A DNA stretch of 10,792 nt from positions 1 through 10,792 of the IMG/VR virus record IMGVR_UViG_2690315922_000018. One strand, 5' to 3'. Below are positions 1 to 7,458 of this stretch, piece by piece; the first letter of the stretch is position 1; the number at the start of each line of letters is the position of its first letter. Below the pieces are notes generated by a model, which was given only the letters and a program-made list of their open reading frames with translations, was not told the origin of the DNA and searched no databases. Source of the DNA: a virus. Taxonomy: Duplodnaviria; Heunggongvirae; Uroviricota; Caudoviricetes. The translations under genes were made by a program, and so were the position numbers.

Positions 1-1236
1 CTACGATAACCGCGCATTCAACATGGCTACCTGTTCGTCGTTCATGTCATCAATCCACATACCGTAAATTTCATACACCATCTGCGCAGTTTCATGCCCC
101 ATCTGGCTGGCTATAAATGCCGGGTTCGCTCCTGCCGTCAACAGCCAACAGGCAAAAGTATGCCGCGTATGGTACGGATTACGGCGGCGAATACCAGCAC
201 GTTTTACTGCTGCATTCCATCTCGCCCCCAAACTGCTTACCGAGTAATAAGGTTTCTGTTTTCCGTTACACATCCTGGGCATGAAAACAAAATGCAGTTT
301 TTGCTTTTCGGTTCTGCCATACTCCCGATGATAAAAGGTGATTTCGCTTTTGCGATAATGTCCGGTCAGTTTGTATTGCTCCTTCAGTGCTTCAAGAGCA
401 GGCTGCAGTAATGTTACCGTTCGGATCCCGGCATTTGTTTTTGGAGGACCGAACATATCAAGTATCGTCAGGTTTCTTCTGACATTCACAATTCCCTTCT
501 CGAAATCCACATCCTCCCACGCCAGGGCTGCCAGTTCCCCGTGACGAAGCCCGGAGTAAACAGCAAATTTCCACAAGTTTTGACTCTGTCCTTTTTCTCT
601 TTCCATTAATGCATTGAATTCTGTTTTAGATAACGGATCAGGCTTTATTCTGTTTCGCTGTAATTTTTTTACTCCTTCAAATGGTTTGGTTGATATAAAT
701 CCCGACTGATACGCAAAACGTAACAACGAACATAGCAGGGCGATATAGTTATCAACTGTGCGCACGGTTCTTCCTTTTTTGTTGGCTCTTGGATTATCCT
801 GGTAAAGCGTTTCTCCATGCAGCAGTTCATTTCGGTAGCTTAAGATATCGCTATAACGAATATGTGATATTGGGGTACTCTCGCAAATGATTATTCTGAG
901 AGTTTTTAATTGTGATTTTGTTTTCTTCATTGTGTTTGTTGTTAACTCTGTCTCTTTAATTTTTGTCCAGATATCACAAAGCTCCCCGAATGTTTTTATG
1001 ACCCTCGTTGTCACCATTTTTGCCCCGGTATTGGACTGGGGAAAACGTCTTAAATACTCGAACTCGCCGGAATTTATTTCGTGAACTATCAATGCTCTTA
1101 AACTCCCGGCCTTTTTAATGTTACTGTTAGTAACCTCCCAGCCTTTCAATGTTTCCCGACATCGTTTCCCTCGAAACATGAACCAGATGCGAATGTATTT
1201 ACCTCGAATCTCGACACCTGTTGGTAATTTAGACAT
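1..1236 (-). CDS. intR: Tyrosine-type site-specific integrase, Rac prophage IntR family (411 aa)
   Basis: Full-length ORF from ATG at 1236..1234 to TAG at 3..1. N-terminal sequence MSKLPTGVEIRGKYIRIWFMFRGKRCRETLKGWEV closely matches the Rac integrase as I recall it; the C-terminal region carries the tyrosine-recombinase R...HxxR...Y pattern (HTRHTFACWLL ... MVYEIYGMW). It is the terminal gene of the leftward operon, as in lambdoid phages. Confidence 0.9.
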   Translation of the reverse strand: MSKLPTGVEIRGKYIRIWFMFRGKRCRETLKGWEVTNSNIKKAGSLRALIVHEINSGEFEYLRRFPQSNTGAKMVTTRVIKTFGELCDIWTKIKETELTTNTMKKTKSQLKTLRIIICESTPISHIRYSDILSYRNELLHGETLYQDNPRANKKGRTVRTVDNYIALLCSLLRFAYQSGFISTKPFEGVKKLQRNRIKPDPLSKTEFNALMEREKGQSQNLWKFAVYSGLRHGELAALAWEDVDFEKGIVNVRRNLTILDMFGPPKTNAGIRTVTLLQPALEALKEQYKLTGHYRKSEITFYHREYGRTEKQKLHFVFMPRMCNGKQKPYYSVSSLGARWNAAVKRAGIRRRNPYHTRHTFACWLLTAGANPAFIASQMGHETAQMVYEIYGMWIDDMNDEQVAMLNARLS

Positions 1237-1237
1237 A

Positions 1238-1453
1238 TTATGAGTCTTTGATAAACTGATTTATCTTCGGATAGTTGTACCAGATAATCCCTCGCTTGCT
1301 GTCTGGCTTACCTAAAGGAGATACTCGTTTGAAGTGGAGACCTTCCACCCAACAGTTCTGGCGATATGCTTCAATTTGTCTGGCCCCCAGACCAGTACGA
1401 AGCATCAGACCGTATTCAACCATCCACTCTTCATTAAAGATCACTTGTGCCAT
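1238..1453 (-). CDS. ydaQ: Excisionase-like protein, YdaQ/XisR family (71 aa)
   Basis: ATG at 1453..1451 with a GAGGTGA-type SD upstream; the ORF-track start at 1477 is TTG. Stop TAA at 1240..1238 lies 1 nt from the int start. The product [30 protein letters not shown]... matches Rac YdaQ as I recall it, in the xis position immediately upstream of int. Confidence 0.75.
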
Positions 1454-1552
1454 CGCATCACCTCTGGCGGGCGACAATATTAGACAGAAATTGACGCCCG
1501 GCGTTGATTATTAATAATCAGCTATGAAGTTTTAATTTGAATACAATGCAAC

Positions 1553-1753
1553 TTACCAAGACTGAAGTTTCTCGCAATTAAAATTCATCAGTTTTACTTT
1601 TTGCTCTCTGGAAACGCCTGCTTCTTTTTTCCCTGAGAGCATTTTTTCGCATTCTGATTTCGTTAGTTTAGATTTTGAATATCTTGTCCAGTTAGTAGGA
1701 GTACCACCTTCCTTTTCAATTGTGGCGGTAATTTTATACATAGATGCCTCCAT
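1553..1753 (-). CDS. ydaC: Small conserved prophage protein, YdaC-like (DUF1187)
   Basis: ORF 1553..1813; the likely start is the internal ATG at 1753 ([17 protein letters not shown]...), but the ATG at 1813 cannot be excluded and neither has a strong SD. Position between ralR and xis matches Rac synteny. Confidence 0.5.
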   Translation of the reverse strand: MEASMYKITATIEKEGGTPTNWTRYSKSKLTKSECEKMLSGKKEAGVSREQKVKLMNFNCEKLQSW

Positions 1754-1964
1754 TAATATTTTCAGCGGTTCGTTTATTCCATCTTTCGAGGGCTTCTTTC
1801 TCACTTCCACCATAGCCAGTTCGGGATTCGCATCCGTTGCATTTTGCCCGGTAATACCCTGAAATGGCTTTCACCGTTACAGATGGACAACCACAAAACG
1901 GACATGGTTTGACTTTTGTGTATCGCTCTGGTTTTTCTCCTGTGAGCTTTGTGGCTGCGCTCAT
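1734..1964 (-). CDS. ralR: Restriction-alleviation protein, Lar/RalR family (about 76 aa)
   Basis: Contains the CPFCG ... C..C ... ERWNKR pattern typical of the Lar family. Preferred start is ATG 1964..1962 (GGGGAG SD about 8 nt upstream), which forms an ATGA overlap with the exo stop; the alternative ATG at 1970 has the SD too close. Confidence 0.7.
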
Positions 1965-2641
1965 TTCCATTGCTCCCCAAATACAAAACCAATTTCAGCA
2001 AGTGCCTCGTCCATTTTTTCGATGAATTCTGGCACCATCTCGTCAAAACTCGCCATGTACTTTTCATCCCGCTCAACCACGACATAATGCAGGCCTTCAC
2101 GCTTCATACGCGGGTCATAGTTGGCAAAGTACCAGGCATCTTTTTGCGTCACCCACATGCTGTACTGCACCTGGGACATGTAAGCCGACTTTATGGCCCC
2201 GAAACCACCGAGCCGGAACTTCATGAAATCCCGGGAGGTAAACGGGCATTTCAGTTCAAGGCCGTTACCGTCGTTGCATAAGCCATCGGGAGAGCAGGCG
2301 GTGCGCATAGTCTCGTCACGATAGATGATCGGGGATTCAGTAACATTCACGCCGGAAATGAACTCAAACAGGGCTCTGGCGTCGTTCTCGTACTGTTTTC
2401 CCCAGGCCAGTGCTTTAGCGTTAACTTCCGGGGTCACTCCGGTGCAGACCTCAGCCAGCAGGGTGTGGAAGTAGGACATTTTCATGTCAGGCCATTTCTT
2501 TCCTGAGCGGGGTTTTGCTATCACGTTGTGAACTTCTGAAGCTGTGATGACGCCGAGCCGTAATTTGTGCCACGCATCATCCCCTTGTTTAACAGTTCTC
2601 ACGTCGATTCCTGTACGTTGCAGGATAATGTCAGGAGTCAT
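1961..2641 (-). CDS. exo: Lambda-type exonuclease (Red alpha / Exo, YqaJ fold), 226 aa
   Basis: Near-identical over its full length to phage lambda Exo as I recall it ([15 protein letters not shown]...[20 protein letters not shown]...[11 protein letters not shown]), same length of 226 aa. Start ATG 2641..2639 overlaps the bet stop TGA 2640..2638. Confidence 0.95.
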
Positions 2642-3417
2642 GCTGCCACCTTCTGCTCTGCGGCTTTCCGTTTCAGGAATCCAAGAGTTTTCACTGCTTC
2701 GGTCTGCGTCAGTTCTGATGATGCGCGAATGTCGCGGCGAAGTATCTGGGAACAGAGCGGCAATAAGTCGTCATCCCATGTTTTATCCAGGGCGATCAGC
2801 AGAGCGTTAATCTCCTGCATGGTTTCATCGTTAACCGGAGTGATGTCGCGTTCCGGCTGACTTTCTGATGCGGTATTTTCGACAATGCGCTCGGCTTCAT
2901 CCTTGTCATAGATACCAGCAAATCCGAAGGCCAGACGGGCACACTGAATCATGGCTTTATGCCGTAACATCCGCTTGGGGTGCGACTGCCACGGCCCCGT
3001 AACTTCTTTGCCTTCGCGGGTTTTGAATGGTTCGCGGCGGCACTCATCCATCCACTCGGTAACGCAGATCGGATGATTGCGGTCCTTGCGATAAATCCGG
3101 CATGTACAGGATTCATTGTCCTGCTCAAAGTCCATACCATCAAACTGCTGGTTTTCATTGATGATGCGGGACCAGCCATCAACGCCCACCACCGGAACGA
3201 TACCATTCTGCTTATCAGGGAAGGCGTAAATCTCTTTCGTCCACGGATTAAGACCGTACTGGTTGGCGACGATCAGCAGCGCGATGAATTGCGCATCGCT
3301 GGCATTGCCTTTAAATGCTGTCTGGCGAAGAGTGGCGATCAGTTCCTGCGGGTCGACAGTATCCATGCCGACACGTTCAGCCAGCTTCCCGGCCAGCGTT
3401 GCGAGTGCAGTACTCAT
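2638..3417 (-). CDS. bet: Lambda-type single-strand annealing protein (Red beta / Bet), 259 aa
   Basis: Near-identical to lambda Bet as I recall it ([19 protein letters not shown]...[42 protein letters not shown]...), about 2 aa shorter. ATG at 3417..3415. Confidence 0.95.
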
Positions 3418-3422
3418 TCGTT

Positions 3423-3722
3423 TTATACCTCTGAATCAATATCAACCTGGTGACGCGCAATGGTTTCAACCATGTACCGGATGTGTTCTGCCATGCGCTC
3501 CTGAAACTCAACATCATTATCAAATGCGCGGCTAATTGCCTGTTTACTGGCGCCGTGGCGTTGCAAATGGTCGATGCAGAGCGATTCAAACAGGTGCTGG
3601 GGCAGACCCTTTTCCAGGTCGCCCGCCAGCTCTGTTTCTTTTTCTTCGCGAACGATCTGCTGGTAGTGGCGTGACCATGCCAGATCTTCAATGCGATCAA
3701 AAATCAGGCATGTGCTCATCAT
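3423..3722 (-). CDS. gam: Lambda-type Gam (RecBCD inhibitor), short form of about 99 aa
   Basis: C-terminal 85 aa nearly identical to lambda Gam as I recall it (...[40 protein letters not shown]...[26 protein letters not shown]). First ATG is the tandem ATG ATG at 3722/3719; the ORF-track start at 3755 is a TTG. The start overlaps the 3' end of the upstream 663-aa ORF (stop at 3699..3697). Confidence 0.9.
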
Positions 3723-5688
3723 CCGCCACTCCAAAATTTTCAAGCCTGTTGGCAATCATCATTGCAATACCCGGAATTAATGGCGCTGAGGCTATACCCG
3801 CAGGATTCGCACATAAACCGTAAACCGCCGCAATCACCACTTGTCTTTTCCAGTCGAGTTTTTCTAATGATGAAGCTGCTGCTTCACCAGTTTCATCACT
3901 GCAATCGTGATGCTGATCGCTGCCAGCGTTCTCCTTGTGCAGATGTTTATTGTCTTCCATTTTCTCCGAATCTTTTTCCTGAGATTCATCCATATTTTCT
4001 TCATTAAAGGTTTCCTGATACGTTGCGTCTCCCATCACTGCACCACAGTCAGGGCAGCTATTTCCTCCAGCCTGACCGCAGGCGGTGTAAATTTTTTCTG
4101 CTTCCTGTTTCGCTACTGGCTCAGGTTGTTTCACATCCGGGCTGGTTTTTTCAGTTTCTGGTGTGTTTTGTTCTGTTTCTGGCTTATTCTGGTACACAGA
4201 ATCGCGGGTCTGGATCCCCTTGACCCATTTCGGATCGTTCGGGTCGCTAATTCCTTCAACAAACTCTCCGTGACAGGCAGCCAGTAATTTGTCTGCATCG
4301 ACAGGATTTTGGGGCGGAATGTTTTTCCGGGCTTCATGGAGTTCTGCCCTCAGTTCCTGATATTTCGCATCAACAGAATTTACCTGTGGCTGAGCATCCA
4401 TCGACTGCGTGTTCTGATGATGTTCAGTTGTATCCGGTTCCACTGTTTCAGGCGTTGCCTGTTCATTTGCCATTGCGCCAGATGGTTGTGGTTTTTCTTC
4501 ACCTTGTTTTCCTTCTTCTGTATCACGCTGTGGCATTGGGGCTGAGGAACGGCCGCAAGCAATATCCACGATTTCCTGATCAGGATTGGCGTGATTGGTT
4601 TCAATCAGCACCTTGTTCAGATATTCAGTGACGTGCGCGTGAATAACCTCAATACCGATAGGTGCTTCTTTCACGGATGCAACCACGATGGCGCGGGAAT
4701 AATCCAATCCCCCAGGCATAGCAGTGAATATGTCACGGAAAACAGAAAAGGGCGGCTTATTCTCTGCGATGATTTCATCAATACGTTTAGCGTGTGCCGG
4801 ATGAAGGTTATAAATATCAACATCCATTGAACGGGCCAGAATGCCAGTCGCAACATCGCGTGCCAGCGAAGCCTGATCGTGGACGAAATCTTCACCGCGA
4901 TCAGTTTTGTTCCCGCCGCCAGCATTAGCACCGGAGGGCGTGCGGGTGATGCGTGAAACACGATTCCCTTTCATCCACTCTTTTGTCAGCAGACCTCGAT
5001 CGGTGTAGTCGGTGCCCAGGTATGCTTCGAAAAAAGCAGTCATCAGTCCCAGATCTGAATTACCAGGATTAGGGAAAACTTTGTCAGTGTCACGAACCAG
5101 TTTGTGGAGATCTCGAATCTCAAGCAGTTCGAGTTGTGCTGTTTTATTTGAGATAGCCAGCGCTGTAACTGCGGGAAGTTCTTCATCCCGTGCAATGTGT
5201 AATGCCTGGAGTTCGTCGCGTGAAACGTGCGTTACTGGATTTTCACTGCCGTGTTGTGCCAGCCAGCGAACAGGTAATTCCTGACCTGAAATCGGCAGGA
5301 GCATGCTCTCCTCAATCTCAGTCATATCTTCGCCGTTGACGTTGGCATTGTCAGTGCTGGCTGGTTTGTCCTGTGCAGAGTGTGATGGCGCGATAAATAC
5401 CATTGTAATGCCATCTTCCCCGCCTTTTTCGTAACGGTTGCAGAATTCCGTATCAAATACGCCTTCTGGCGGAAGGTCATCAACAACGGGCAAATTTACG
5501 CGAACAGGTTTTTTAAAATCATCTTCGTCGTAGCCTGCATCGTCCATTGCAGCAATGCAGCGTGAAACCGCAACAGAAAGTTTTTTTGCCTCTGTCCAGA
5601 AGAAGCCGCCTTTGATGCCGAGGCGTTTTCTTGCGCCCTCATTTTTCGCGTCGCAATGTAACGCAAAATTTTGTTTGTCAGTGCTCAT
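3697..5688 (-). CDS. Large RecE (exodeoxyribonuclease VIII) N-terminal-region-like protein, 663 aa, with a divergent C-terminal tail and no evident nuclease domain
   Basis: Uninterrupted 663-codon ORF, ATG at 5688..5686 with a GAGG about 10 nt upstream. It sits immediately downstream of racC, which is the recE position in Rac. Long stretches ([101 protein letters not shown]) match what I recall of the non-catalytic N-terminal region of RecE; I cannot fully separate recall from priming by the sequence. The last 130 aa carry a Cys cluster ([12 protein letters not shown]), an acidic low-complexity run and a roughly 30-aa hydrophobic segment. Confidence 0.6.
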
Positions 5689-5756
5689 TGTTTTTTAACC
5701 TCAACTCAGATTAAAATTTAGTGCGAGTGATGAATAAATGTCCCAGGTTTTTCACT

Positions 5757-5789
5757 CAGGCCTGTACACTGTGCAGGCTTTCTTTTTTT
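5757..5789 (+). terminator. Putative rho-independent terminator on the plus strand (8-10 bp GC-rich stem followed by TTTCTTTTTTT)
   Basis: Stem 5759-5766 (GCCTGTAC) pairs with 5770-5777, followed by a T-rich run 5778-5789. On the minus strand the same hairpin is not followed by a U-run. Lies between the racC stop and the 663-aa ORF start. Confidence 0.35.
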
Positions 5790-6064
5790 CAAATTTCACC
5801 TTTTAATTTCATTGCAATCAGAGTTGCCAGAAACTCAGCTTTTTTTTCTGCTGGCAGATTATTTCCAATGTGCACCAGGCACATTTTTTTGACGCCTTCG
5901 TGAAGTGTTTTAACGTTGCCTGATGGACCGTCGATATCAACCACAGTGAATGGGGTTTCTTTATTTTCTGTTTTAATCACGTAGCCAATACGCTTTCCGT
6001 CCAGATTGACCTCGTGAACAATGTCATCAGTAGTTACAACAGTGGCTTCATAATTGGTAATCAT
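5789..6064 (-). CDS. racC: RacC (Rac prophage small protein), 91 aa
   Basis: ATG 6064..6062 with AAGGAG SD 7 nt upstream; product MITNYEATVVTTDDIVHEVNL.GKRIGYVIKTENKETPFTVVDIDGPSGNVKTL... matches Rac RacC as I recall it. The ORF-track N-terminal extension to 6112 is probably not used. Confidence 0.8.
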   Translation of the reverse strand: MITNYEATVVTTDDIVHEVNLDGKRIGYVIKTENKETPFTVVDIDGPSGNVKTLHEGVKKMCLVHIGNNLPAEKKAEFLATLIAMKLKGEI

Positions 6065-6138
6065 GTTTTTCTCCTTAATTAAGGTTGAGCGAATCCCTGC
6101 CATTGCTGGCATAAATTCAGTTTCGAATAGTCAGTTAA

Positions 6139-6309
6139 TTAAAGTTCGTGTGCCATCTGGTCTTTTTCGGCACAAGTTTCACTGCAATATTTTCTTGGTT
6201 CGTCTTTTGATAAAGTTCCGTGCATGAAATGAAGCATTCTTTCAATAGTTTTGCTTTCTTCAACGTCTTTTTTGCAAAGGTGGTAAGCACATTTTATTTT
6301 CTTATCCAT
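6139..6309 (-). CDS. ydaE: YdaE-like small Cys-rich (putative zinc-binding) protein, 56 aa; not in the ORF track
   Basis: Hand translation of the minus strand: ATG 6309..6307 -> [56 protein letters not shown], stop TAA 6141..6139. The start overlaps the kilR stop (TGATG). Position between kilR and racC matches Rac. Confidence 0.7.
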   Translation of the reverse strand: MDKKIKCAYHLCKKDVEESKTIERMLHFMHGTLSKDEPRKYCSETCAEKDQMAHEL

Positions 6310-6530
6310 CACCATGACTCCGCTTTTACAGGTAAACCATCACTACCGAGGAAGACTTTAATCATGCAGTCAGAAATGCATGTTTTTGTAGTCAGGCTAC
6401 GAATATAAAGTTTTCGCTTTTTTATATTGTTTGCCGAGGCGATATATGTCCGGCCTTCATGAAGAACATAATCGCCAGGAGTTACACACTGACGTGGTAT
6501 TTCATCAGTTCCGAAGTGATGAGTAATCAT
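6309..6530 (-). CDS. kilR: KilR-like killing protein (Rac KilR is an FtsZ inhibitor), 73 aa
   Basis: ATG 6530..6528 preceded by GGAGA with 6-nt spacing; the ORF-track start at 6542 lacks an SD. Product ...[67 protein letters not shown] matches KilR as I recall it. Confidence 0.8.
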
Positions 6531-6702
6531 AATTATCTCCATTTTTACAAATGAATTTTGTCGATGCGGTGCCTGGTGCCTCCAGGTGACGTTAACCAGT
6601 TAACAATTAACGCCGGATACAGAGAATCCACCCATAACACTGTTTTTAGCTTTAACTGTTCCGCGTGCGCTTAGCCGCATTCACCGCATCACAAAATTCA
6701 CT

Positions 6703-6751
6703 TTAAAAAGGGCGGACATCAGCCAAACTTCAAGAAAAAACTGATGCCGCC
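6703..6751 (-). terminator. Terminator-like hairpin on the minus strand (imperfect 11-bp stem, long loop, then CUUUUU)
   Basis: 6711-6722 GGCGGACATCAG pairs with 6741-6751 CTGATGCCGCC (one bulge). On the minus strand the stem is followed by CTTTTTAAAG (plus 6701-6710). The 18-nt loop is atypical for an intrinsic terminator, hence low confidence. Confidence 0.3.
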
Positions 6752-6969
6752 AGGACTACACACAGCAATGTCGTTATTTACAACCGGAGGCGCACTCCCA
6801 CCATTTAAATTTAACAGACAAGACCGACTCTTTATGGATACCGGAAGTGCGCCTTCGTGTTGTGCCCGGTTTTATTTCACCACCTCCGGGCTTCGGTGGT
6901 CTCGGCTATACCCCTACAGCGAGAGCTTGTGTTAACATTTCAATACCCTTACAGTTGAGAGTTATTGAT

Positions 6970-7458
6970 ATGTTGGATGTATTTACTCCATTGTTGAAAC
7001 TTTTTGCTAACGAGCCACTCGAAAGACTTATGTATACGATTATCATTTTTGGTCTCACTCTCTTGCTGATACCGAAAGAGTTTACTGTCGCATTCAATGC
7101 TTATACTGAAATACCTTGGCTCTTTCAGATTATCGTTTTTGCCTTTTCTTTCGTGGTCGCCATTTCCTTCTCAAGATTGCGAGCACATATTCAAAAGCAT
7201 TATTCATTACTACCAGAGCAACGAGTATTGCTTCGTTTATCTGAGAAAGAAATCGCTGTATTTAAAGATTTCCTTAAAACAGGAAATCTTATTATCACTT
7301 CTCCTTGCCGTAACCCGGTTATGAAAAAATTAGAACGGAAGGGCATCATTCAACATCAGAGTGATAGCGCAAACTGTTCTTATTATCTCGTCACCGAAAA
7401 ATACTCCCATTTTATGAAGTTATTCTGGAACAGCAGGAGTAGACGTTTTAATCGTTAG
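6970..7458 (+). CDS. sieB: Superinfection exclusion protein B (SieB), 162 aa, membrane protein
   Basis: ATG at 6970 (GAGAG 9 nt upstream). Product MLDVFTPLLKLFANEPLE.LMYTIIIFGLTL.LIPKEFTVAFNAYTEIPWLFQIIVFAFSFVVAISFSRLRAH... has two hydrophobic segments and matches Rac SieB as I recall it. The only plus-strand gene in the left half, as in Rac. The ORF-track extension back to 6847 is not supported. Confidence 0.85.
   Translation: MLDVFTPLLKLFANEPLERLMYTIIIFGLTLLLIPKEFTVAFNAYTEIPWLFQIIVFAFSFVVAISFSRLRAHIQKHYSLLPEQRVLLRLSEKEIAVFKDFLKTGNLIITSPCRNPVMKKLERKGIIQHQSDSANCSYYLVTEKYSHFMKLFWNSRSRRFNR

Follow-up and report, generated by a model that had tools for sequence, protein, structure and literature searches.

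The window (here, the entire 10,792-nucleotide stretch of DNA analyzed) carries the early-left operon of a lambdoid prophage, with the gene order kilR-ydaE-racC-ORF-gam-bet-exo-lar-DUF1187-xis-int. The ORF (positions 3697..5688, minus strand) has an ATG start with GAGG ~10 nt upstream and a single stop codon, and encodes a 663-aa protein of the nuclease-less RecE-N family (denoted 'RecE-2', or class B); it is located between the kil-type genes and xis/int, the position characteristic of class B genes. Immediately upstream of it, in the same operon, lies a racC homolog (5789..6064, minus strand) with a product 97% identical to RacC of Escherichia coli K-12. On the other side, also on the minus strand, follow gam (3423..3719; 98 aa, matching 5MBV with E=6e-49), bet (2638..3417; 259 aa, matching 7UJL with E=4e-120), and exo, the lambda exonuclease gene (1961..2641; 226 aa, matching 1AVQ/6M9K with E=3e-149). 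These are orthologs of the lambda Red genes in the lambda order, and DNA identity to lambda over gam/bet is 88.5%. The start codon of gam and a GGAG are situated inside the last codons of the ORF, the overlap being 23 nt, and translation of gam is probably coupled to that of the ORF. In K-12, racC is followed by recE (866 aa) and recT. A 663-aa gene that follows racC and precedes gam-bet-exo was the starting point of the original prediction, and the coordinates, the racC identity and the Red matches agree with it.

The 663-aa protein shares 100% identity with a protein of E. albertii annotated as 'exodeoxyribonuclease VIII' and is found unchanged in four independent assemblies; proteins of the same architecture are encoded in 14 complete E. 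coli genomes. A sequencing or assembly frameshift in a full-length recE, singled out for checking along with the original prediction, has a probability close to nil and is rejected because nuclease-coding sequence is absent downstream in any frame and the same protein recurs in independent assemblies.

Relationship to RecE and domain architecture

Residues 58-604 of the 663-aa protein are 76% identical to residues 50-587 of K-12 RecE, and BLASTP detects no similarity beyond this region. The sole Pfam match, itself uninformative as to function, is to PF06630 (Exonuc_VIII; residues 55-187, E=8e-32), and the NCBIfam model NF007259 is matched with 1065.9 bits at model positions 1-600 of 877 only, so that the equivalog cutoff of 1269 is missed. 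The protein lacks a C-terminal nuclease domain of the PD-(D/E)XK (RecB-like) type, represented by PDB 3H4R and Pfam PF12684. The N-terminal region of RecE is retained and the nuclease is lacking, as had been surmised from the initial reading of the sequence, with one amendment: the first 57 aa are unlike those of K-12 RecE and match instead the common type found in the 884/891-aa RecE of other E. coli strains.

The N-terminus is predicted to form an alpha/beta domain (residues 1-100; 5389..5688, minus strand; AF2 pLDDT ~90). Downstream is a block (residues 157-388; 4525..5218, minus strand) that encompasses a helical middle domain (residues 157-240), a Gly-rich loop that is conserved yet disordered (residues 248-262), and a helical core (residues 266-388), which is the most conserved part of the protein (AF2 pLDDT >90). 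A long, acidic, mostly disordered linker (residues 389-604; 3877..4524, minus strand) contains a helix at residues 439-455 and a CxxC...CxxC zinc-ribbon-like motif at residues 534-548. In the window lineage, the first Cys of this motif is replaced by Tyr, which could represent partial decay of one sub-function in the window allele. The C-terminal tail (residues 605-663; 3700..3876, minus strand) is predicted to adopt a helix-turn-helix hairpin and carries the motif AAxxGLCANP. In two independent AF2 models, the domains are predicted confidently and the tail (pLDDT 76-89) is parted from the core by the long disordered linker; the pTM values of these monomer models are low (0.30 and 0.36).

The dN/dS ratio is 0.09-0.13 in the core and 0.12-0.16 in the tail (at dS ~1), compared with 0.4-1.2 in the linkers. 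The 663-aa ORF is an intact member, evolving under purifying selection, of a nuclease-less branch of the RecE N-terminal family. Many Enterobacteriaceae have nuclease-less relatives, as do inducible Stx phages, and the class B gene was identified in Shigella phage 75/02 Stx, POCJ13, phiSTEC1589-Stx1c and PhiR5_2. The proposal that the N-terminal region of RecE has an independent, selectable role is borne out by this spread of relatives and by dN/dS values of ~0.1 where the protein is folded. Acidic residues (D+E) outnumber basic ones (K+R) in 10 of the 11 segments, and such a strongly acidic protein is unlikely to bind DNA directly.

Cassette exchange and the conserved C-terminal hairpin

Comparison with a class A (nuclease-bearing) Rac-like prophage of E. 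albertii, L013, delineates an exchanged cassette at positions 1940..3873 of the window (minus strand), which consists of the tail, gam, bet and exo, and stands in place of the RecE nuclease domain and recT of L013. The flanks are 96.4% (window 6924..3874) and 98.9% (window 1939..1) identical between the two prophages, and the intervening segment is unrelated. The left breakpoint of the cassette falls at codon ~605 of the ORF; homology to Rac ends at 3876, and homology to lambda begins at ~3698. Cassette exchange in a Rac-like prophage of E. albertii gave rise to the window copy, the homology arms being the shared N-terminal coding sequence on one side and the lar-xis-int region on the other. 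In the tree of the N-region, the window protein is closest, apart from itself, to a class A protein (92% identical), and switches between the nuclease and hairpin endings are recurrent, with at least five among 112 close protein clusters. The two endings, the nuclease of true RecE and the hairpin, are mutually exclusive after the same upstream architecture, and the 663-aa protein is not a broken recE. We are highly confident in the identity, architecture and origin of the protein as described here.

The 'different tail' noticed at the outset does differ from the nuclease ending of RecE; it is not, however, incidental, but rather the motif that defines an old nuclease-less class and is best conserved within it, with the consensus LTYxQQLTIAALQGLCANPA...D[DE][IL]PxMA. 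As one of the features of class B, we set the motif AAxxG[LM]CANP located 30-49 aa from the end of the protein, and residues 620-629 of the window protein conform to this pattern. None of the 94 class-A-length proteins has the motif, and where present it always lies 30-49 aa from the C-terminus. The tail is kept in Stx-phage homologs that are 61% identical overall and also at the C-terminus of ~20 representatives with only 20-28% identity, with A620, A621, G624, N628 and P629 invariant. Its DNA is unrelated both to K-12 Rac and to lambda, and it was found in 106 of the 5426 complete E. coli genomes. A Pfam search with the tail gave no match, and the PHROGs search gave matches only to the ends of phrog_26058/607. 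A tblastn search against deposited phages yielded 4 distinct phages only, in each case at the C-terminus of the same gene, and a tail profile compared with 5.8 billion proteins retrieved 18 short fragments and no other architectures, a weak negative given the small candidate set (159). MAFFT suggests a YG...AxP...IA..P resemblance of the tail to the N-terminus of the nuclease, but the notion of a degenerate nuclease remnant was rejected given that DNA and BLASTP support is absent. A beta-clamp-binding motif (QL..) was likewise rejected, the tail being predicted helical and not fitting the consensus of that motif.

In Escherichia, the gene always adjoins a Rec module. At 26 distant tail-bearing loci (10 + 16), the gene lies 336-1057 bp before int, and no recombination genes were found within +/-6-8 kb. 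Because these distant members precede xis/int without recombination genes nearby, proteins of the 663-aa type have a role of their own that does not depend on Red. The idea that the nuclease and annealing activities are outsourced to lambda Exo and Bet accordingly has to be narrowed: it fits the window locus and its subclade, where the cassette was swapped, and does not hold for the family, given the 26 distant loci that lack Rec genes.

Two of the distant tail-bearing relatives, P0221 and P0181, carry the Pfam domains YdfE_N and YdfE_C according to precomputed matches. In phmmer comparisons with the window protein, they yield E-values of 5e-24 and 5e-34, respectively, and P0221 matches K-12 YdfE with E=1e-12; direct BLAST of the window protein against the K-12 YdfE fragment gave no match. 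A literature search for a function of YdfE returned none.

Putative functions of the 663-aa protein

We tentatively propose that the 663-aa protein is a non-catalytic, acidic, early-expressed adaptor with a function linked to recombination. The folded N-terminal modules would carry the conserved activity of the family, most likely the binding of a partner that takes part in transactions at DNA ends or in recombination, a role suggested by the fusion of this region to a resection nuclease in RecE and by full-length RecE being reported to boost linear-linear recombination. The PD-(D/E)XK nuclease of RecE is tetrameric, and the flexibly tethered hairpin may take the place of this oligomerizing domain as a docking or oligomerization module. 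In the tail, a small-xxx-small pattern (AAxxG) precedes the helix-breaking NP and would fit close helix packing; docking or oligomerization is our best guess for the tail, judging from its sequence pattern and the low-pTM monomer models. At the window locus, lambda Exo, Bet and Gam would supply resection, annealing and RecBCD inhibition, respectively. Structure and fold comparison of the 663-aa protein with known folds and structures gave no match. A strictly recombination-linked role is weakened because the distant tail-bearing members sit in prophages without recombination genes. When the identity and origin of the protein are combined with the adaptor function into a single explanation, we place that explanation, as a compromise, slightly above even.

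A host-takeover or anti-defense protein unrelated to recombination is a possible alternative, although we consider it less likely than not. Under this scenario, an acidic, partly disordered early protein binds and neutralizes a host nuclease or defense factor, and the fusion to the RecE nuclease is secondary. The composition and long disordered segments of the 663-aa protein fit such a role, as do the host-directed accessory genes among its early-left neighbors (kilR, lar/ralR with the RalA sRNA, gam and sieB), the patchy distribution of the tail among the complete E. coli genomes, and the location of distant tail-bearing members between kil and xis/int in prophages without a Rec module. In thousands of genomes, however, the same N-terminal architecture exists as a stable fusion with a resection nuclease, and the invariable association of the gene with Rec modules in Escherichia also speaks against a role divorced from recombination. 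Furthermore, full-length RecE alters the outcome of recombination even with Gam co-expressed (PMC4381043, where ETg is the LLHR reference; PMC11610958). PADLOC models detected 0 families in the window protein and three distant relatives, and no structural similarity to known inhibitors was found.

We assign an extremely small probability to the gene being a non-functional remnant, that is, a recE cut short by insertion of the Red cassette, with the tail resulting from fortuitous read-through. The score under the NCBIfam equivalog cutoff, the Cys-to-Tyr replacement in the zinc-ribbon-like motif of the window allele, and the split or truncated state of some relatives (L036, L069, L080; H62-H64; short fragments) could be taken as signs of decay, but this reading is contradicted by the conservation of the tail, which shows the low dN/dS given above and retains its motif in relatives with 20-28% identity that have no adjacent gam; moreover, the ORF is intact in inducible Stx phages and identical in the four assemblies. 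Also very improbable is a tail-anchored membrane protein, with the hydrophobic C-terminus inserted in the inner membrane, where it might, for instance, serve exclusion or localize recombination. The window tail does have the highest Kyte-Doolittle 19-residue mean in the protein (1.62, borderline transmembrane), but the homologous segment of distant members contains Q, D and E (QQLTIAALQGLCANPAxxxxDD) and is surpassed in hydrophobicity by other parts of those proteins, the N-P in the middle of the segment is conserved, and AF2 gives a short helical hairpin rather than one long helix. From the hydrophobicity comparison, a transmembrane segment was rejected for the family as a whole.

A further scheme, which we regard as doubtful at present, is that the N-terminal region of RecE and YdfE form one autonomous, ancient family of lambdoid early proteins. 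The flexibly tethered hairpin would be the docking element for a host target, at the replisome or at the ends of DNA, and RecE would be a derived fusion in which the nuclease replaced the hairpin. If a function of this kind is correct, the family would be a new class of phage mediators of recombination or host manipulation.

Comparison with RecE, RecE-2 and YdfE

For decades, no function has been assigned to the N-terminal ~600 residues of RecE, and full-length RecE underlies linear-linear 'direct cloning' recombineering. The findings described here indicate that this region also occurs naturally by itself, as a protein under selection that carries a conserved C-terminal motif of its own, that it switches repeatedly between nuclease and hairpin endings, and that distant YdfE-type relatives live without any recombination genes. 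The 663-aa protein offers a modest handle on this unexplained front part of RecE, and the inducible Stx phages, together with the two isogenic E. albertii prophages, which are distinguished by the cassette alone, provide genetic material for studying its role.

The nuclease-less class was known before, as RecE-2, as phrog_26058/607 and, for the distant members, as Pfam YdfE_N/YdfE_C, but is uncharacterized. A 2025 Genome Res report (PMC12315714) mentions, without further detail, 'RecE-2' proteins of lambdoid Rec modules that lack the nuclease domain and have unknown roles; the window protein fits this description, the match being by description only, whereas the present analysis adds the conservation of the tail motif, the connection to YdfE and the origin by cassette swap. 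The whole 663-aa protein matches phrog_607 ('exonuclease VII') at 3.8e-241, and phrog_26058 (unknown function) is matched at its end by the tails of distant members (1e-9 to 7e-16). Both are clusters only, with no functional information, and phrog_607 owes its 'exonuclease' label to full-length RecE. The proteins of the class identified here are labeled 'exodeoxyribonuclease VIII', 'RecE family exodeoxyribonuclease' or 'exonuclease VII' despite having no nuclease domain, and the 663-aa protein should not be called an exonuclease.

The YdfE family, which includes the Qin pseudogene ydfE (b1577; PF27430 YdfE_N and PF27432 YdfE_C), resembles the window gene in its location after a division inhibitor gene (dicB/kil) and before int. 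The YdfE-type members differ in being only ~23% identical to the window protein, in having another middle domain in place of the zinc-ribbon-like region, and in not lying beside Rec genes. RecE itself (K-12 b1350, 866 aa; nuclease PDB 3H4R) likewise follows kilR-ydaE-racC in an early-left operon of the Rac-like type and shares with the 663-aa protein PF06630, the conserved core and the zinc-ribbon-like motif. RecE, however, continues into the PD-(D/E)XK nuclease domain that the 663-aa protein lacks and, in K-12 and in the class A prophage of E. albertii, is followed by recT, whereas the 663-aa protein ends in a conserved 55-aa hairpin, found in no class A protein, and its gene is followed by gam-bet-exo.

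A RecE-type protein without nuclease upstream of gam-bet-exo

The 663-aa ORF (3697..5688, minus strand; ATG start codon, with GAGG about 10 nt upstream) lies in a Rac-like prophage of Escherichia albertii, within the minus-strand order kilR-ydaE-racC-ORF-gam-bet-exo-lar/ralR-DUF1187-xis-int. Its product is unchanged in 4 independent assemblies and 100% identical to E. albertii entries titled 'exodeoxyribonuclease VIII'. The original prediction was that this gene, placed after racC and before a lambda Red cassette, retains the N-terminal region of RecE, ends differently and lacks the nuclease domain. The placement is borne out by a racC product 97% identical to K-12 RacC and by matches of Gam, Bet and Exo to the lambda proteins in PDB (E=6e-49, 4e-120 and 3e-149, respectively); the equivalent site of K-12 reads racC-recE-recT. 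Residues 58-604 are 76% identical to residues 50-587 of K-12 RecE (BLASTP), with no match past residue 604; the sole Pfam match is PF06630 (residues 55-187), and the NCBIfam ExoVIII equivalog is matched over model positions 1-600 of 877 (1066 bits, below the cutoff of 1269). The protein does not match the RecE nuclease structure 3H4R, which K-12 RecE 605-866 matches with E=3e-180. Residues 1-57 are unlike K-12 RecE and represent the type common in the 884/891-aa RecE of other strains. Together, these comparisons confirm the original observation wherever it is testable.

The start of gam (ATGATG), with GGAG 7-8 nt upstream, falls within the final codons of the ORF (3697-3722, minus strand), and this 23-nt overlap with its embedded GGAG suggests translational coupling of the two genes. 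The overlap is the same in E. coli M8 and is 4 nt (ATGA) in the Stx-phage versions.

Cassette exchange and the C-terminal tail

As the reference for the origin of the ORF, we used an E. albertii prophage (locus L013) encoding a full RecE (P0011) and RecT. The window is 96.4% identical to L013 over 6924..3874 and 98.9% identical over 1939..1; the intervening 1940-3873 is unrelated to the corresponding segment, such that 1934 bp encompassing the tail, gam, bet and exo stand in for 2425 bp that code for the nuclease domain and RecT. From this alignment, the ORF originates from a clean cassette swap, and from neither frameshift nor truncation; the pseudogene and artefact readings are contradicted by the data. 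The left breakpoint, at codon ~605, coincides with the edge of the nuclease domain as crystallised. Lambda-like DNA stops at ~3698 and Rac-like DNA begins at ~3876, and the 177 bp between them, which encode the tail, match neither lambda nor Rac DNA. When residues 1-600 of 112 close protein clusters are placed on a neighbour-joining tree, nuclease-bearing (class A) and tail-bearing (class B) proteins are intermixed, requiring at least 5 switches, and the window protein has its nearest non-self relative in class A (92% identical). Evidently, the common N-terminal coding region is a recombination arm for swapping the downstream Rec module.

Locus L013 (4208-8418) is itself an unusual, longer RecET variant: its RecE has 1048 aa vs 866-891 aa elsewhere, and its 350-aa RecT has no phmmer match with the K-12 RecT seed. 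In the window, the RalA antitoxin sRNA (1557-1735, plus strand; Rfam RF02694, 208.6 bits) adjoins a lar/ralR-type ORF (1734-1970, minus strand; PF14354 in the identical locus L015), with a 2-nt overlap on opposite strands. The two look like a Rac-type type I toxin-antitoxin pair kept just outside the exchanged cassette. A mechanically called 203-aa ORF with a GTG start (6847-7458, plus strand), read from an internal Met (MLDVFTPLL...), is a candidate for the Rac superinfection-exclusion gene sieB, going by its position relative to K-12 and its sequence.

When 1.84 billion representatives were searched exhaustively with HMMER, only 227 related clusters emerged, about 20 with the RecE nuclease domain (850-1090 aa) and about 20 others, 20-28% identical to the window protein, that end in the tail motif (491-732 aa). 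In the alignment of the latter, the tail is the best-conserved segment, with the consensus LTYxQQLTIAALQGLCANPA.....D[DE][IL]PxMAxxLA and the invariant residues A620, A621, G624, N628 and P629. The motif corresponds to the end of phrog_26058, invariably lies 30-49 residues before the C-terminus where present, and was found in none of the 94 class-A-length proteins. Stx-phage homologues keep the last ~50 residues at an overall identity of only 61%, with the adjacent linker unalignable. By the Nei-Gojobori method, dN/dS of the tail is 0.12-0.16 at dS ~1, similar to the core (0.09-0.13); the acidic linkers reach 0.4-1.2. Conservation within the nuclease-less class is 90% or higher for two cysteines, 378 in the core motif DIACG and 626 in the tail motif GLCANP.

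The AF2 model of the window protein (21-sequence alignment) predicts an alpha/beta domain (residues 1-100, pLDDT ~90), a confident helical domain (157-240), a helical core (266-388, pLDDT >90) and, in the tail, a helical hairpin (610-655, pLDDT 76-85), with long acidic disordered stretches between domains; a conserved 13-residue Gly-rich loop is also predicted to be disordered. A second model, of the compact relative P0159 (491 aa), has the same plan (pTM 0.36), its tail (pLDDT 80-89) following a 67-residue disordered linker. Hydropathy of the window tail (1.62) is borderline for a membrane segment, and the homologous segments of distant members are polar or charged; a membrane-anchor reading is contradicted by the data. 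The zinc-ribbon-like CxxC...CxxC motif (residues 534-548; 4045-4089, minus strand) has Tyr for the first Cys, which is Cys in 97 of 105 motif-bearing clusters and Tyr in 8, all from the E. albertii lineage of the window; judging from the substitution, this allele may have lost metal binding.

Genomic context and the link to YdfE

YdfE_N and YdfE_C, two recent Pfam families, are present in the distant tail-bearing relatives P0221 and P0181, and P0221 has a match to ydfE, a pseudogene of the K-12 Qin prophage (E=1e-12); the window protein has no direct match to the K-12 ydfE fragment. We surveyed context in three sets. The first, 10 distant loci taken from assemblies and from representatives of GTDB species (Buttiauxella, Citrobacter, Lelliottia, Cedecea and Cronobacter), has a kil-type gene, then the tail-bearing gene, then int 500-850 bp further on; homologues of Exo, Bet, Gam, RecT and the RecE nuclease are all absent near the gene. 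In 16 distant IMG/VR contigs (27-47% identical), int lies within 336-1057 bp downstream. The other 64 IMG/VR contigs hold closer relatives, usually in the order gene, gam-bet-exo-int; wherever downstream sequence suffices, gam is next, with the single exception of L040, where only Bet and Exo were detected. Given these contexts, the family is autonomous, and the lambda Red association is a trait of one subclade. Among 5426 complete E. coli genomes, 106 have the tail and ~4500 have Rac-type recE sequence.

Seven IMG/VR contigs (L030, L031, L034, L036, L037, L071, L082) contain the gene, gam and then int 1.5-4.4 kb on, with no lambda Bet or Exo detected; possibly these contigs have deletions or encode recombinases of another type. 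At four of the distant class B loci (L006, L008, L010, L012), a 67-80-aa ORF overlaps the 3' end of the gene by 8 nt, or 13 nt in L006, resembling the gam overlap of the window; it is DUF1187/RcbA-like in L006 and a weak DUF7740 match in L008. The nuclease-less gene does decay in some lineages, notably Shigella: copies broken into two ORFs, or surviving only as a C-terminal fragment beside gam, occur in IMG/VR contigs (L036, L069, L080), E. coli genomes (H62-H64) and Shigella (P0248, P0284).

Possible function and relation to known proteins

The data show an intact, non-nuclease protein under selection, with a C-terminal module interchangeable with the RecE nuclease. Tentatively, and with less than even confidence, we read it as a non-catalytic adaptor. 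[quoted passage not shown] Given its small-xxx-small pattern, the tethered hairpin could dock on a partner or, alternatively, oligomerise, replacing the tetrameric nuclease domain, and at the window locus Exo, Bet and Gam would supply the enzymology. The main rival, a host-takeover or anti-defence role independent of recombination, draws on the lack of Rec genes around the YdfE-type members and on how acidic and disordered the protein is; we rate it only slightly less probable than the adaptor. The rest of the probability goes to something not yet imagined.

New here are the conserved tail motif as the class hallmark, the finding that tail and nuclease strictly exclude each other, the connection to YdfE by homology, the repeated exchange of the cassette, its breakpoints placed at the nucleotide level, and the Rec-independent context of distant members; the surprise to specialists is limited, yet with this material a long-standing question can be tested directly. 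NCBI gives class proteins, even in Cronobacter, the name 'RecE family exodeoxyribonuclease', and such exonuclease naming is a systematic misannotation. P0287 (Cronobacter dublinensis), P0122 (E. coli) and L002 gp06, class proteins without any nuclease domain, are labelled 'RecE family exodeoxyribonuclease', 'exonuclease' or 'exonuclease VII'. The RecE N-terminal region has repeatedly been described as being of unknown function (PMC11611040, PMC11610958), and families for nuclease-less RecE-type proteins exist in PHROGs and recent Pfam releases; given these descriptions and families and the NCBI naming, the window protein belongs to a known but uncharacterised kind.
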